Part shown: in pieces, positions 17,068 to 31,459 of the stretch
How positions within the stretch are numbered: position 1 is the stretch's first letter
Layout of the letters: each line of letters opens with the position of its first letter
From: a virus
Taxonomy: Duplodnaviria; Heunggongvirae; Uroviricota; Caudoviricetes
Reading direction: 5' to 3' (one strand)
Virus record (IMG/VR): IMGVR_UViG_2541047804_000005
Length of the DNA: 36,214 nucleotides
Translations under genes and position numbers: made by a program
Notes under the pieces: generated by a model
What the model was told of the DNA's origin: nothing
The model's database searches: none
Seen by the model: the letters and a program-made list of their open reading frames with translations, nothing else

Positions 17068-17338
17068 GATGTTACCGTAGTATGTGAGTATCCATCGAAT
17101 AGATACCAAGCAAAAAAGCTCCCGAAGGAGCCTTCATTTTCACTTTTTTAAATCCAACGACAGACGGCTGGCATTTAAGTATTGTGAAATATTATCAAAT
17201 GTAATCATCATTGATTTACAAAAGATACATTTTGCCCCGAAAGGATTCATGTCAGAAACATCAAAAGATGATGTTCTATACTGGGAACCATGACAACACG
17301 GGCATCTAAAGTGAATATGGTTTGTAATATTGTCTACC

Positions 17339-17551
17339 TCAAAGCGCCACTACATGAACAGCGGCAGGACCTTTAGGTCCGTTCTCAATACCAAATTCAA
17401 CTTCCTGATTCTCAGTTAATGTTTTGAAATCGTTGCTCTGAATTGCTGAGAAATGGACAAACACATCTTTGCTGCCATCTTTCGGCGTGATGAAACCAAA
17501 ACCTTTTTCAGGGTTAAACCATTTCACTAAACCAGTCATTTTGTTAGACAT
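17339..17551 (-). CDS. cspI: Cold shock protein, CspA family (CspI-like)
   Basis: 70-aa ORF with the cold-shock domain signature KWFN.EKGFGFI and VFVHFSAI (RNP1/RNP2 motifs); a long AT-rich upstream leader region follows on the minus strand. Confidence 0.8.
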
Positions 17552-17914
17552 AATTATTACCTTTTGAAGAAATTAGCCCTTGGGCAGAATGGTCCGAAAA
17601 AAAATATCAGAGAGAAAAACCAACAAGGAAATCTCAAGAGGTACAAATAATAAAATTATAACAATGACTGCTTCAGATAAATTTGTAACAAACCAGAACA
17701 CCATTAACGCATGATTAACCACCCATAGCAAGGATTACTTTTGTAAAGAAAAACACAGCAATGAAAGAATAGCTTTATTTATTAATAATAACGTGTCATT
17801 CTGATTAAGACCTTTTATCTTACCCTTAAGATTTCAGGAATTTTGGCTCATGGAAGAGTCCTTTTTATTTAAATTTTACATTCCGCGATGTAAATGTTCC
17901 GATTTAATATTACC

Positions 17915-19939: not shown

Positions 19940-20223
19940 TTTGAGATTGTGGTGCTTTTTGTGGGAGTCATCCACTTACGCACTTTGTTTTGCCATGCCA
20001 GCAGTTAGCTTCTGCTGTAAAACTATTCATGCAGCAAACCTGCACTTCACCACAATGGTTAGCATACTTTTCCTGATTAAGATTTTGCCAAATATGCTAG
20101 CCATTGTTTCATGTATTGGACCTCCTTACTTTTTATTAAAGAGATCCAATATTCACTACTCTGTCCGTATCTCTACTCAGGCATCAGCCTTCTTCGTTAT
20201 CGTATACAGACGAGCGATGAATT

Positions 20224-20439
20224 TTAATCAGTAATGATGACATTTGCTGCTGCAGGACCTTTAGCACCACTCTCTATAGAGAAGGTAACCTTTTGACCTT
20301 CAAATAAGGTTCGATAATTATCATTCTGAATCGCAGAAAAATGCACAAACACATCTTTACTACCATCAACAGGAGAAATAAAGCCGAAACCTTTATCAGC
20401 GTTAAACCATTTTACTAAACCAGTCATTTTATTTGACAT
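20224..20439 (-). CDS. cspB: Cold shock protein, CspA family (CspB-like)
   Basis: 71-aa [26 protein letters not shown]...VFVHFSAI with both RNP motifs; divergent from the cspF-like gene as in Qin. Confidence 0.75.
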
Positions 20440-20739
20440 TCTACATTCCTTAACTTGAGCCTTTCGGCATAAATGGTTTGCATAACAGAAACGACTTCGT
20501 ACTTAATTGGAGAGACTCAAAGAAGGAATAAGTGAATAACACCTGAAATGAGAACTGCTTTAGTAAACTACTTCGTATATCGTCTGTTCTTCAAACCGAC
20601 GCAATCATTAACGCATAGTTGAACATATGAAGCAATGTTTATTTTAGACATCCAGCCATCTTCAACCCCATCAAAAAACTATAGCTTTCTTCAGGAACGT
20701 GTGTATAGTGCGCCAAGTTATCAGTATTAAGGAATTTTT

Positions 20740-24312: not shown

Positions 24313-24564
24313 TTATTCTTCTGCAAAAGCAGAAAAGCCAGCTTTTATTCCGATCTCTTTCAATGCCTGTAATGAAGTGACAAACTCACCTTCGCGCAAG
24401 ATAAATCCGTCCGTGACCCGAGCATCCACAAAATTAATTAACGCAGCCCCATTCTTTCGCAAACACATAATGCGGTAATGACTAACAAGATTTCCATTTT
24501 CAACGCACACAGCATAGAGGCCATCTTCACAAAAAATTTTACGCAGTTCTTCGATGTTCATCAT
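24313..24564 (-). CDS. Hypothetical prophage protein (83 aa), possibly Rem-like by position
   Basis: ORF between hok and the DUF968 gene, where Qin carries rem (83 aa); sequence not independently recognised. Confidence 0.35.
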   Translation of the reverse strand: MMNIEELRKIFCEDGLYAVCVENGNLVSHYRIMCLRKNGAALINFVDARVTDGFILREGEFVTSLQALKEIGIKAGFSAFAEE

Positions 24565-24680
24565 CAGAATCCTTCCGGATAATTAGCTCTCCCCTTTAAG
24601 GGACCATCCCTCTTATCCCTGCGCGCTACTTAAGTATTTTTGATTCTATTCCGGCACCGTCCAGATCTTCAAACGCGTTG

Positions 24681-24710
24681 AAAATAAAAACAAAAACCCG
24701 CCGAAGCGGG
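24681..24710 (-). terminator. Rho-independent terminator of hok mRNA
   Basis: CCCGC-TTCG-GCGGG hairpin (plus 24697-24710) followed on the minus strand by TTTTTGTTTTTATTTT, about 70 nt after the hok stop. Confidence 0.6.
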
Positions 24711-24780
24711 TTAAGTGCGGGTGCGTTGAGGATGCCTGCCACATCAGAGGTGGCGAGGGATTTCTCCCTCGCCGGGTCTC

Positions 24781-24936
24781 TTACTCCTCAGGTTCGTAAG
24801 CTGTGAAGACAGCGACCTCCGTCTGGCCGGTTCGGATTCGTACCTCGCAGAGGTCTTTCCTCGTTACCAGTGCCGTCACTATGACGGTTAAACAGATGAC
24901 GATCAGGGCGATTAACATCGCCTTTTGCTGCTTCAT
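24781..24936 (-). CDS. hokD: Hok-family type I toxin (HokD/RelF-like)
   Basis: 51-aa ORF MKQQKAMLIALIVICLTVIVTALVTRKDLCEVRIRTGQTEVAVFTAYEPEE: single transmembrane helix plus the conserved Hok C-terminal Cys region. Confidence 0.85.
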   Translation of the reverse strand: MKQQKAMLIALIVICLTVIVTALVTRKDLCEVRIRTGQTEVAVFTAYEPEE

Positions 24937-24993
24937 AGCCTGCTTCTCCTTGCCTTTCGGCTCGTAAGAGGCTAACCTACATGTGTCTAGCAT
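24781..24993 (-). CDS. Mok-like reading frame (in-frame N-terminal extension of hok)
   Basis: ATG at 24991-24993 opens a 70-aa frame (MLDTCRLASYEPKGKEKQA-MKQQK...) that runs into hok, resembling MokC-type arrangement. Confidence 0.5.
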   Translation of the reverse strand: MLDTCRLASYEPKGKEKQAMKQQKAMLIALIVICLTVIVTALVTRKDLCEVRIRTGQTEVAVFTAYEPEE

Positions 24994-25050
24994 GAAATTG
25001 GCCTCAGATTAATGTTAAGCGTCTTGCAGGACGCGTAATGTTAACTGGGG
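24985..25050 (+). ncRNA. Predicted Sok-like antisense RNA
   Basis: Plus-strand TTGCCT-N17-TAACCT (24950-24978) would start an antisense transcript across the mok start codon and ribosome binding site; a short hairpin GCGTC-TTGCAG-GACGC lies at 25010-25025. No clear U-tract terminator; ends are approximate. Confidence 0.3.
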
Positions 25051-25111
25051 CTTTTCTCTATCTGCCTTTGGTGTTCATGCCCGAGGCAGATAGCCTCAAG
25101 CACCCGCAGCC

Positions 25112-25140
25112 ATTCTACTTAACTACCGTTACCTCGCCAA
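25112..25140 (-). promoter_or_regulatory. Candidate hok/mok promoter
   Basis: On the minus strand TTGGCG-N17-TAGAAT, followed by a 5' leader with a 9-bp stem hairpin (CTATCTGCC...GGCAGATAG, plus 25056-25091) about 110 nt upstream of mok. Confidence 0.4.
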
Positions 25141-25610
25141 TATGAAATCAGTCAGAAAGGCGATCCATAAGAACAATAGCAAGACAATAAATCGCCATTA
25201 CAGCCGTAATAGCCAGCGCACATTTGAGAACCAGCACCACAACCTCCTGTATTGGACGTAGACCAGTCCTGATGAATATGAGGCTGTCTCGTCAGTGATT
25301 CAATACAACTATTGGGTATAGTTTCTCTGATTTTTTCTGTGGAAATGGGGCACAACCACTAGTCACCACCAGCACTTCTTTTAATACGCAAAGTCCGACA
25401 CAAGCTAACCTTCTAGTCCGCTTTGAGCGAAAAACAGCCATAATTTAGTGCCACGTATATAATGATAGAGCTATTCAAGCTAGCAATTCACATGTAAAAA
25501 TTCAGAGGGTAGAAGCACATAGTTATAAATGTTGGCTCCATCGACAAATTGCGGTCTCAAGTACATTTATTAATGTTGCCCCCGCATTAACAAATCATCA
25601 AGGTGACGAC

Positions 25611-27398
25611 ATGGACGATATTAATATCAGCCTCGACGAACTTAACACTATTGATTTATCCCCCTTAATCCAGAGTAAGCTGCCAGTTACCTGCTTTGAT
25701 ATCACAAAGTATCTTTCTAGCCTAGGTGATGGAAGAGCGGAGATAAGACTGCTAACCCATATTTGCGGTTTTCACTTTCGTCCCGAAAATCCACAGGTAC
25801 CATTTGGTCCGTGCTTTCAAAGCAGCCAAGGTAGATCTGCAATTCCGGATGACATTAACGGGTTGTCGCTGGAGGTACTTTCTCAATTTTGCCCGACGAT
25901 AGAGCTACCCGAACTTCAAGCTCGTATTGCTGATACACTTTGGGTTCGTAAAATTGGTGGAATCCGTTTTCCTTTGCTGGCAGTCCGTGCTTATTATGCG
26001 TCCAGTATAGCTATTATGACATCGCAAGGGACGTGGGTTAGTGCTTTAGAACGCCTAGAGCGTGCGCTTAGGCTGTGTTGTTTTTTTCGAAAGAATACTG
26101 ATTTCAGGGATGAATTTGATCAGCTTTCGGCACATCTACTAGCAGAGTATGAACGTACCAGAGAACAAGGCGATTCACCTTATCCGCTGCGACTCCTGCA
26201 ACTCGATATCGACTGTAAAGTGAGTGAGCCATCTTTTATTGCCCAGGAACTCCTGTTTCTGACAAAAAACTATCTGGCTCAAAAATTATTTTCATTTGCC
26301 GTCGATGCCTGTAAAACCGCAATCACGATTGCGAATAGGTGCTGTGACAGAGATACACAGTTTGAATTCTGGCGGCTTCTTGCCGATACACATCTGGAAG
26401 AGTCAAAATTCCAAGATGGCGGTATGATTTCGGCAGCCTGCATGCAGAATGCTATTGAAGCACTGGCTAATATTCCAGGAACCCGAATAGAACGTCTTGC
26501 GCTGTATGAAGAAATGCGTGATTACCAAATCGAATCCCGTCACCAGATGTCTATCCTTCAGTCTCCCCCTCAAGATATTAGTGAGATTGTCCATCAAGCC
26601 AAGAGTCGGGTAGTCGGAAGAGATATGTTTGATATGGTTTTCAGACTTGCGATGCTGGTCTGTCGGCCAACCAGCATTGAGAGACTTAAGGCTCAAGCAA
26701 TAGAACAAAAGGCCAACAGCATAGCTTGGATGTTTGGATCAACACATATTGATCATGAGGGAATGACACTTGCTCGCATACCCGCAGGATTGGGGATTGA
26801 TGATGCAAATGGGGCAGTTATTTGGCCCATAATGATGACGAGAATGCGTATCGACCATGAGTTGGCAGTAGCTGGGCAAATTATTCCTGCTACAGATGAG
26901 ATCACAATGAAATATCCAATCTCGGAGGCGTTTTTTCGCGATATGTTCATCAATCATCCCTTCATCCCGTTTGGGCATGAAGAGTTTTTCATCAAGGGTA
27001 TGGTTTGCGGTTTCAATGGAGATTTTATGACGGCATGCCACGTGTTGATTCCCCAGATCGAAAATAGTCTGAGATATGTGGCTAAAATTAAAGGTGAGGA
27101 ACCATCGCAGCTTCACGGGGACGGTTCGCAAGAGCGAAATGGACTCAAGGGATTACTAGATAATCCACTGATTATTGAAGCTTTCGGCGTAGACATAATT
27201 GGCAATCTTCAGGCCTTACTGGTAGATAAAATCTATGGTGATTTACGAAATCAACTAGCTCACGGATATGTGCCTGCCGGTTACTACAATCAACCTCCCT
27301 GCATTTTTGCATGGTGGCTTGTATTGCACATTCTAATGAACCCTACGGCGAGATACTGGCAAGCCACTTATGGCCAAGAGAGTGAGGCTCAGACTTAA
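25611..27398 (+). CDS. Orphan 595-aa protein with C-terminal HEPN-like Rx4HxY motif; candidate abortive-infection or defence RNase
   Basis: Long uninterrupted ORF with AGGTGA ribosome binding site, opposite in orientation to both neighbours, lower GC than the flanking phage genes. C-terminal LRNQLAHGY (R546...H551.Y553) fits the HEPN Rx4-6H / HepT Rx4HxY catalytic signature. No N-terminal domain recognised. Confidence 0.6.
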   Translation: MDDINISLDELNTIDLSPLIQSKLPVTCFDITKYLSSLGDGRAEIRLLTHICGFHFRPENPQVPFGPCFQSSQGRSAIPDDINGLSLEVLSQFCPTIELPELQARIADTLWVRKIGGIRFPLLAVRAYYASSIAIMTSQGTWVSALERLERALRLCCFFRKNTDFRDEFDQLSAHLLAEYERTREQGDSPYPLRLLQLDIDCKVSEPSFIAQELLFLTKNYLAQKLFSFAVDACKTAITIANRCCDRDTQFEFWRLLADTHLEESKFQDGGMISAACMQNAIEALANIPGTRIERLALYEEMRDYQIESRHQMSILQSPPQDISEIVHQAKSRVVGRDMFDMVFRLAMLVCRPTSIERLKAQAIEQKANSIAWMFGSTHIDHEGMTLARIPAGLGIDDANGAVIWPIMMTRMRIDHELAVAGQIIPATDEITMKYPISEAFFRDMFINHPFIPFGHEEFFIKGMVCGFNGDFMTACHVLIPQIENSLRYVAKIKGEEPSQLHGDGSQERNGLKGLLDNPLIIEAFGVDIIGNLQALLVDKIYGDLRNQLAHGYVPAGYYNQPPCIFAWWLVLHILMNPTARYWQATYGQESEAQT

Positions 27399-27616
27399 AG
27401 TGAATAAGTTTACGAAGTTGGCACTTCCGGATGCATGTCCATATGAGTTGAGGCGATTTGGTTAATAAGGTTGAGTGCTGCTGAAATTATTCGATGTCCG
27501 CTTTTGGCACAAAGCGGACAACCACGCCAGATCTACCCTGTGCCATGAAAAATGAGAATGTCAATTCACTCCTGAACTAATGCTTTTTAATCTAGTAACG
27601 TCTAAAATACCTAACA

Positions 27617-31406: not shown

Positions 31407-31459
31407 TTTCTGGTGACGTTTGGCGGTATCAGTTTTACTCCGTGACTGCTCTGCCGCCG
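31407..31459 (+). ncRNA. dicF: DicF small RNA
   Basis: TTTCTGGTGACGTTTGGCGGTATCAGTTTTACTCCGTGACTGCTCTGCCGCC followed by GTTTTT matches DicF as remembered, including the GGCGG...CCGCC terminator stem; located just upstream of dicB. Confidence 0.75.

Follow-up and report, generated by a model that had tools for sequence, protein, structure and literature searches.

A probable complete hok/mok/sok cassette of the hokD/hokW subtype in a Qin-like prophage of Escherichia coli

The minus strand from about position 25140 to 24688 of the window very probably carries a complete hok/mok/sok type I toxin-antitoxin cassette of the hokD/hokW subtype, a judgement that takes identity and molecular logic jointly. 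The window is the whole stretch of DNA that was analysed, 36,214 nucleotides of a Caudoviricetes genome (IMG/VR record IMGVR_UViG_2541047804_000005). The integrity of the cassette is well supported at the level of its sequence, and we infer its activity. Every element was found to be present, in register and conserved, and the structural switch of the mRNA was reproduced in silico; processing, expression of Sok, dependence on RNase III, toxicity in situ and biological role would follow by analogy with hok/sok of plasmid R1 and with hokW-sokW. The cassette as such is already known, being RefSeq hokD, very common in E. coli, and nearly identical to the characterised hokW-sokW; its family is the most thoroughly studied among type I toxin-antitoxin systems. 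An earlier note on this DNA had proposed an apparently intact hok/mok/sok locus without relBE, and the sequence bears this out: all elements are present, the named motifs are unchanged relative to hokW-sokW, and no match to RelE or RelB was found.

Results

Prophage setting and elements of the cassette

The window is 100% identical to the chromosome of E. coli strain 118UI, where the cassette belongs to a Qin-like, lambdoid prophage integrated beside rspB. The order of genes in this prophage is portal, terminase, gnsB, cspI, lysis genes, cspB, cspF, Q (ydfT), ydfU, rem and hokD, followed by a DUF4209 gene, a DUF977 gene, a ydaT-like gene, cro/cI-like genes, ydfA, dicB, exonuclease, xis and int. 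The cassette is placed with the replication module on one side and the rem-ydfU-Q region on the other. Rfam models also detected landmarks of the Qin type in the window, namely two cspA-type leaders and DicF. The elements that we assign to the cassette are as follows.

25112-25140, minus strand: candidate sigma-70-like hok/mok promoter from the promoter scan (-35 TTGGCG at 25140-25135, 17-nt spacer, -10 TAGAAT at 25117-25112)
24688-25105, minus strand: predicted full-length hok mRNA of about 415 nt, with a putative start near 25105 and a putative 3' end
25094-25105, minus strand: tac (translational activator) GGGUGCUUGAGG, at the 5' end of the mRNA
25058-25093, minus strand: 5' leader hairpin, mRNA nt 13-48, in both the full-length and the truncated folds
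25047-25053, minus strand: ucb, or anti-SD box, AAGCCCC, from the folds
25002-25005, minus strand: mok Shine-Dalgarno sequence (SD) GAGG, assigned by motif position and aligned with the GAGG mok SD of R1
24993, minus strand: mok AUG, start of the 70-aa frame
24781-24993, minus strand: mok frame from the list of open reading frames, 70 aa, in frame with hok and with 19 extra N-terminal residues
24972-24968, minus strand: dcb GCCUC, assigned by motif position
24968-25005, minus strand: predicted Sok-target hairpin of the truncated mRNA, a stem of mok SD and dcb with the loop CUAG (24990-24987), which fits YUNR
24949-24946, minus strand: hok SD GGAG, read from the sequence
24781-24936, minus strand: hok toxin gene, 51 aa, AUG at 24936 and stop codon at 24783-24781
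24795-24798, minus strand: codon UAC of Tyr47 followed by G, by sequence the context of reported TadA A-to-I editing (Tyr to Cys)
24752-24773, minus strand: 3' UTR hairpin GGCGAGGGA-GAAA-UCCCUCGCC, in both the full-length and the truncated folds
24719-24731, minus strand: fbi (fold-back inhibitory element) CCUCAACGCACCC, 12 bp with tac
24688-24712, minus strand: intrinsic terminator AACCCGC-UUCG-GCGGGUU from the terminator scan, stem 24712-24695 and U tract to about 24688
24950-24978, plus strand: putative Sok promoter (-35 TTGCCT at 24950-24955, 17-nt spacer, -10 TAACCT at 24973-24978)
24985-25058, plus strand: predicted Sok antisense RNA of about 74 nt, with putative ends

The Hok frame, the in-frame Mok extension, the promoter, the leader hairpin, the terminator and the antisense promoter across the mok start, all of which the earlier note had described, could each be located. 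The note had the locus run from 24781 to 25140, a range that takes in hok, mok and the promoter; the 3' UTR (24688-24780), which holds the 3' hairpin, fbi and the terminator, falls outside it and belongs to the cassette as well.

The Hok protein matched the Pfam family HOK_GEF (PF01848) with 81.6 bits against a cutoff of 22 (E 3e-23). It is identical to HokD of K-12, and RefSeq names it HokD (WP_000813254.1, E. coli 118UI). With the NCBIfam Hok models the score stayed under the curated cutoff for Hok (48.5 vs 73 bits), and these models were not used to decide membership. HokD is toxic when overexpressed (Hok survey, bioRxiv 10.1101/2025.08.07.668861), and editing of the hokD mRNA was reported at about 6% (PMC12214031).

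The SD of mok ends 8 nt before its ATG, and coding sequences of identical length (213 nt) are labelled 'MokW-like host killing' in the phages VT2-Sakai and HannyBb. The idea that an in-frame mok is an oddity of this locus was rejected: the R1-type locus, when translated, also has mok in frame with hok, so that this arrangement is the norm of the family.

The transcript is delimited by conservation at its two ends. In all 25 of the 25 related loci inspected, the hok -10 hexamer (TAnnAT) has a fixed position 6 nt before GGGTGC, even where the DNA upstream is unrelated. DNA homology to divergent hok loci extends from about the -10 and the 5' end to just past fbi and thereby outlines the transcript. 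The Rfam model for sok (RF01794) was covered in full, from model position 1 to 157, by a match at 25105-24931 that scored 116 bits (E 6e-26) against a gathering score of 59. This match lies on the strand of the hok mRNA and ends at the hok AUG, which makes the model in effect one of the mRNA leader.

A candidate Sok antisense RNA across the mok start

The sequence holds a putative cis-encoded antisense RNA, Sok, with its promoter inside the 5' region of mok and with complementarity to the mok translation start. The candidate promoter fell below the threshold of a generic promoter scan of the window and was found through sokW and through an alignment of 30 loci, in which its register, TTG(A)CC, 17 nt and TAnnCT, is kept throughout. 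By consensus the hexamers are weak (4/6 and 3/6); they are the same as those of sokW, with a single substitution in the spacer between the two promoters. Mutation of the sokW promoter in its -10 region unleashed the toxicity of HokW (PMC8621323).

The predicted Sok would have a single-stranded 5' tail over the start codon and SD of mok, a long hairpin (25000-25052) and a U-rich tail. Its fold was calculated at -30 to -33 kcal/mol, with z scores of -5.5 to -6.2, and its length of about 74 nt agrees with sokW, for which 71 nt of complementarity were reported (PMC8621323). The expression and instability of Sok and the stability and 3' processing of the hok mRNA have been described for R1 (PMC9841398) and in part for hokW-sokW (PMC8621323).

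The predicted mRNA switches fold when fbi is removed

Folding of the 415-nt mRNA gave a minimum free energy (MFE) of -174.1 kcal/mol compared to a mean of -126.2 for shuffled sequences, none of which (0 of 100) was as stable (z = -8.65). In this full-length fold the molecule is closed by 12 bp between tac (mRNA nt 1-12) and fbi (nt 375-387), and ucb sequesters the mok SD. When fbi was deleted in silico, with the 3' end set at 24745, 24740 or 24735, the MFE structure consisted of the tac/ucb stem, in which U4 is bulged, together with the hairpin of mok SD and dcb; the Sok-target hairpin was seen only in folds from which fbi had been removed. With the 3' end at 24750 the closed form was retained, so that the prediction of a switch depends on where processing stops.

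As modelled, the refolded truncated mRNA matches the open, Sok-binding and translatable form described for R1, and the R1-type hok mRNA, folded likewise, gave the same overall architecture. For R1, pairing has been described between G4-U6 and A70-C72 and, once the mRNA has been processed, between the mok SD and dcb (PMC9841398). The hairpin in the 3' UTR is presumed to protect the 3' end of the processed mRNA, a role taken over from the last stem-loop of R1 (PMC9841398).

The elements and the predicted structure are conserved across genera

When genomes were scanned with the Mok-Hok protein, 63 loci were obtained, from Escherichia, Shigella, Kluyvera, Citrobacter, Photorhabdus, Pantoea, Erwinia and others. 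The 30-sequence alignment was drawn from loci of Escherichia, Shigella, Kluyvera, Pantoea and Erwinia together with the R1-type plasmid locus. When the predicted mRNA structure was imposed on these 30 loci, 89.1% of the cells could pair, compared to 35-44% in controls in which the partner had been slid, and pairs changed on both sides numbered 36 against 12-28 in the same controls. On four of the five measures, the values of the real alignment were reached by no column shuffle.

The individual helices contribute in different ways. The helix of tac and fbi (helix 1) is 94% paired and nearly invariant, showing conservation and little covariation; tac itself, whose partner is fbi in the full-length fold and ucb in the truncated one, is nearly invariant in the alignment, and the dcb block TAGCCTCTTAC varies little or not at all. 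The leader hairpin (helix 2) is 92% paired and the 3' hairpin (helix 20) 94% paired, each with 3 pairs that have changed on both sides.

The window deviates from its relatives at one column that is conserved at 85% or more, nt 337, where it has A for G. This nucleotide pairs with U350 in the 3' hairpin, and the A-U pair is a compensated change. Among the 13 close relatives of the window, no deviation was found at columns conserved at 85% or more. The elements of the R1 type that the earlier note had named for alignment, tac, ucb and fbi, are present and undisrupted. Inactivation in the manner of K-12, by an insertion sequence (IS), point mutation or rearrangement, was ruled out, given that the locus has neither an IS nor a disrupted frame. 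A chance likeness or a degenerate remnant was likewise ruled out by the Rfam and Pfam scores, the z score of the fold and the agreement at conserved columns.

K-12 hokD is a 5'-truncated form of the same locus

The Qin prophage of K-12 carries hokD (relF), which encodes an identical Hok protein and is 99.6% identical at the DNA level over the stretch that starts at the hok SD and takes in fbi and the terminator. Downstream, K-12 Qin shares with the window the neighbours rem-ydfU-ydfT(Q)-cspF-cspB. The match between the two nonetheless spans 24560-24950 of the window only. In the K-12 sequence (...ttgcgttgac-AGGAGAAGCAGGCTATGAAG) homology starts at the A that directly precedes the hok SD, with the end of relE about 70 nt further upstream. 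K-12 thus lacks everything 5' of position 24950, that is, the promoter, tac, ucb, the mok start, the Sok target and the sok gene. It has instead relE, relB, ydfV, flxA, ydfW and a truncated pseudogene of the ydaT family, where the window has the hok leader with sok, a small ORF, the DUF4209 gene, the DUF977 gene and an intact gene of the ydaT family.

A tblastn search of the window with the K-12 proteins found no RelE or RelB (best E 4.5). An operon of the K-12 type, relBE-hokD (relBEF), was accordingly discarded as a description of this locus, which has no relBE and a full hok leader. The hokD of K-12 is a 5'-truncated derivative of the arrangement seen in the window, and the window locus is its untruncated counterpart. 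This makes the locus a base-by-base reference for what hokD has lost in K-12, where relBE-ydfV-flxA has taken the place of all that preceded the hok SD.

hokW-sokW is the nearest characterised system

By BLAST, hokW-sokW of Sakai prophage 5 (Sp5; phage VT2-Sakai) is 93.5% identical over 93% of the 446-bp locus, with 30 differences in 402 aligned nt. Both loci have a 70-aa in-frame Mok and a 51-aa Hok, and both are carried by lambdoid prophages. The sequences of tac, ucb, mok SD, mok AUG, dcb, the Sok hexamers, hok SD and fbi are unchanged between them. The differences fall in hairpin loops, the spacer between SD and AUG, codons of mok and of the target loop, one base of the promoter spacer, the coding sequence and the 3' UTR. 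Six of the changes lie around the mok SD-AUG spacer and the target loop, where the window has CUAG and hokW CUGA, both of which conform to YUNR. The C-terminal tail of Hok reads FTAYEPEE in the window and FVDYESEK in hokW, and the terminators differ. The two loci also differ in position: hokW-sokW lies near one end of the VT2-Sakai genome among unrelated neighbours, whereas the window locus lies between the replication and Q modules.

Experimentally, hokW-sokW was described as a pair of toxin and RNA antitoxin that depends in part on RNase III and Hfq (Takada et al. 2021, PMC8621323). Neutralisation of Hok toxicity by its cognate Sok was shown for this system, and in Sp5 mitomycin C (MMC) led to lower sokW, higher HokW and faster lysis and phage release (PMC8621323). 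HokW was reported to be 44% identical to Hok of R1 (PMC8621323).

The more distant relatives share the architecture with less of the sequence. The hokC/gef-type chromosomal loci of Escherichia (for example, the one labelled L026 in our set) are about 71-75% identical over the whole mRNA and have the same elements; they lack the extended insert in the Sok hairpin, have a CACTCT-like -10 for Sok, and occupy fixed chromosomal sites rather than prophages. Post-segregational killing is proven for the prototype of the family, hok/sok (parB) of R1, which is plasmid-borne where the window locus is prophage-borne. R1 has the same order of elements, the in-frame mok, the closure of tac with fbi and the same overall fold, at about 48% identity over the aligned mRNA; compared to R1, the Sok hairpin of the window has about 16 extra nt, which appear as an insert in the Rfam alignment. 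The refolding logic is also the same, including a bulged base in the tac/ucb stem (PMC9841398), and the Sok promoter stands in the same register. The hokC of K-12 was reported to be inactivated by an insertion element (PMC7232551, PMC12214031).

The full-length cassette is the majority state in E. coli

The earlier note had regarded an intact copy in a prophage as notable, and the prevalence of the cassette argues otherwise. At least 80% of the 446-bp cassette was found in 4007 of 5426 complete E. coli genomes (about 74%), compared to 1166 that have the relE-hokD junction of K-12; counting places that match over any length, the median per genome was two and the maximum ten. The full cassette is present in BL21 too. 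Among phages, at least 74 records cover 80% or more of the locus, many of them Stx2 phages, under labels such as MokW, host-killer and gef homologue. The copy in phage HannyBb is 99.3% identical and has the same rem/DUF968/Q context, and P1-like plasmids carry a version that is 87-89% identical.

The literature points the same way. The five hok loci of K-12 are regarded as non-functional because of IS elements, point mutations or rearrangement (PMC7232551; also PMC12214031), while the hokD homologue of the adherent-invasive (AIEC) strain NRG857c appears intact (PMC7232551). Together with the RefSeq entry for hokD and the characterisation of hokW-sokW (PMC8621323), these reports further undercut the claim that an intact copy is notable. 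The statement that chromosomal hok loci are inactivated describes a peculiarity of K-12 and not a property of the species.

Discussion

The architecture of the cassette suggests the following mode of action. Transcription from the sigma-70 promoter would yield an mRNA of about 415 nt, closed by the pairing of tac at its 5' end with fbi close to the 3' end. As long as it is closed, ucb would keep the mok SD buried, and the mRNA would neither be translated nor bind Sok. Slow trimming from the 3' end as far as the 3' hairpin would remove fbi and allow the 5' end to pair anew with ucb, upon which the mok SD and dcb could form the target hairpin with its CUAG loop. Sok, about 74 nt long and transcribed from the antisense promoter inside mok, would pair over the mok start region, blocking translation of mok and hence the coupled translation of hok, and the duplex would be marked for RNase III. 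Were Sok to drop, because transcription is shut off, because the element is lost or, as shown for sokW, because of SOS or prophage induction, the stable pool of mRNA would be translated. The 51-aa Hok would then insert in the inner membrane and cause depolarisation and cell death.

A caution comes from other chromosomal loci. In earlier post-segregational and rifampicin assays that the Hok survey summarises, hokA of E. coli C, hokB of K-12 and hokC of ECOR24 were inactive (bioRxiv 10.1101/2025.08.07.668861). These loci failed the killing tests though all of their elements are present, and an intact sequence is for that reason no guarantee of activity. Roles proposed for hok/sok in prophages include that of lysis helper, addiction module and phage exclusion system, and the present locus adds nothing specific to this choice.

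The cassette could tentatively be a lysis helper: the SOS response would lower Sok, Hok would build up in the inner membrane, and growth would stop, the cell lyse and phage be released sooner, as was reported for hokW-sokW of Sp5; this is a rival as to role, not as to mechanism. The 93.5% identity to hokW-sokW and the shared regulatory elements favour such a role, as does the apparent completeness of the prophage, with integrase, excisionase, cI/cro-like genes, Q, lysis genes, terminase and portal. When hokW-sokW was deleted, the growth arrest caused by MMC came about 40 min later and only half as much phage was released (PMC8621323). The effect in Sp5 was nevertheless modest, and the position of the cassette in the phage genome is not that of VT2-Sakai.

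Somewhat more doubtful is a role in addiction, by which the cassette would stabilise the prophage or the variable accessory slot beside it by killing cells that have lost either, or in abortive infection when host transcription is shut off by an infecting phage. For hok/sok of plasmid R1 both stabilisation and abortive infection have been described, and by analogy the matching architecture and predicted RNA switch of the window locus would fit either. The cassette also borders a slot with variable cargo, occupied by a PDC-S39 candidate in the window, by a HEPN gene in CT282 and by relBE in K-12. The survey data bear on this reading from two sides. The hok genes are about four-fold enriched in prophages, which speaks for it; they are not enriched beside defence systems, and in the survey's account of the killing assays the chromosomal loci tested showed no post-segregational killing, both of which speak against it (bioRxiv 10.1101/2025.08.07.668861).

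That the locus is intact but silent, with Sok always in excess or processing too slow, and persists only by hitch-hiking on lambdoid prophages, we consider unlikely. The inactivity of hokA, hokB and hokC in the assays that the survey summarises would agree with it, and K-12 tolerates a truncated copy. Against this, the regulatory elements are strongly conserved in different genera and show compensatory changes, which points to selection for the RNA switch; the nearly identical hokW-sokW has phenotypes (PMC8621323), and about 74% of the genomes retain the cassette, often in several copies.

The neighbour of the cassette had been singled out in the earlier note as a HEPN-like gene directly beside it. 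The adjacency is real: the adjoining gene (25611-27398, plus strand) encodes a 595-aa protein with DUF7380 and DUF4209, which matched the candidate defence family PDC-S39 of PADLOC with E 8e-103. The description as HEPN-like is reasonable because the C-terminal part of this protein contains RNQLAH, an Rx4H pattern. The pairing, however, is not specific. The slot between the DUF977 gene and hok/sok, which holds the PDC-S39/DUF4209 gene in the window, contains a HEPN-domain gene in CT282, QueH in an ST131 strain and relBE with ydfV and flxA in K-12, and it is empty in BL21. Since the cargo differs in this way among strains, the presence of the DUF4209 gene beside hok/sok reflects a cargo hotspot and not a particular partnership.

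It is conceivable, though we consider it highly improbable, that hok/sok forms the fixed border of a slot for swap-in cargo in Qin-like and other lambdoid prophages and perhaps cooperates with that cargo. If this were so, the cassette could enforce the retention of the defence gene in the slot, or it could provide a second layer of abortive infection triggered by the same phage-induced shut-off of transcription. Just upstream of the cassette, at 25148-25237, lies an unannotated ORF for a membrane peptide of 29 aa, which might belong to the module as an additional component not yet described.

A variable cargo slot beside hok/sok

Comparison of the window with related loci (L002, L069, L070 and L071) revealed a cargo site, flanked by the DUF977 gene on one side and hok/sok on the other, the content of which varies among related prophages.

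about 25140-27600: slot bounded by the DUF977 gene and hok/sok
25611-27398, plus strand: 595-aa gene with DUF7380 and DUF4209 domains, adjoining hok/sok

The 595-aa protein matched the candidate defence family PDC-S39 in PADLOC (E = 8e-103). The Rx4H pattern, which is HEPN-like, occurs as RNQLAH in the C-terminal part of the protein. PDC-S39 is the cargo in the window. The slot holds relBE-ydfV-flxA in K-12, a HEPN-domain protein in CT282 and QueH in one ST131 strain, and it is empty in BL21.

Genes for integrase, excisionase, terminase and portal are all present, and the Qin-type prophage of the window appears to be complete. We also observed two cspA-type 5' UTRs, the pair preceding cspI and cspB, and DicF, which are usual landmarks of Qin-type prophages.

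17312-17697, minus strand: first cspA-type thermoregulator 5' UTR
20208-20600, minus strand: second cspA-type thermoregulator 5' UTR
31408-31459, plus strand: DicF sRNA

A small hydrophobic ORF upstream of hok

An unannotated ORF, preceded immediately by the Shine-Dalgarno sequence AGGAGG, ends 8 nt ahead of the hok -35 element.

25148-25240, minus strand: small hydrophobic ORF

Its product, (V)MLVLKCALAITAVMAIYCLAIVLMDRLSD (29-30 aa), gave no match in Pfam or NCBIfam. Phages mEp460_ev081, Tritos, Evi and HannyBb, as well as 3 genomic loci, also retain the open frame, with amino-acid identities of 86-100%; the changes are a mixture of synonymous and conservative substitutions. The ORF may encode a small membrane protein that accompanies this hok/sok variant.

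Features of the hok transcript and hok loci in other genera

The Rfam 'sok' model (RF01794) matched the hok-mRNA strand and its match ends at the hok AUG; therefore, the model describes the hok leader and not the antisense Sok transcript. Any annotation based on this model would assign Sok to the wrong strand.

24931-25105, minus strand: RF01794 match
24795-24798, minus strand: Hok Tyr47 codon UAC followed by G, within CAGC-UUACGAA-CCUG

The sequence surrounding the Tyr47 codon is similar to the TadA-recognised anticodon loop of tRNA-Arg. The mRNA of hokD is reported to undergo A-to-I editing that changes Tyr to Cys at about 6% (PMC12214031). The motif is kept in hok of the window and in hokW of phage VT2-Sakai.

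Tandem and multicopy arrangements were seen at loci L053 (Pseudocitrobacter faecalis), L031 and L049 (Photorhabdus). In some genomes, a single 3-kb stretch contains a tandem pair of hok-type loci separated by about 500-600 bp. Photorhabdus species have many copies, and the in-frame Mok extension is kept at 65-72% amino-acid identity.
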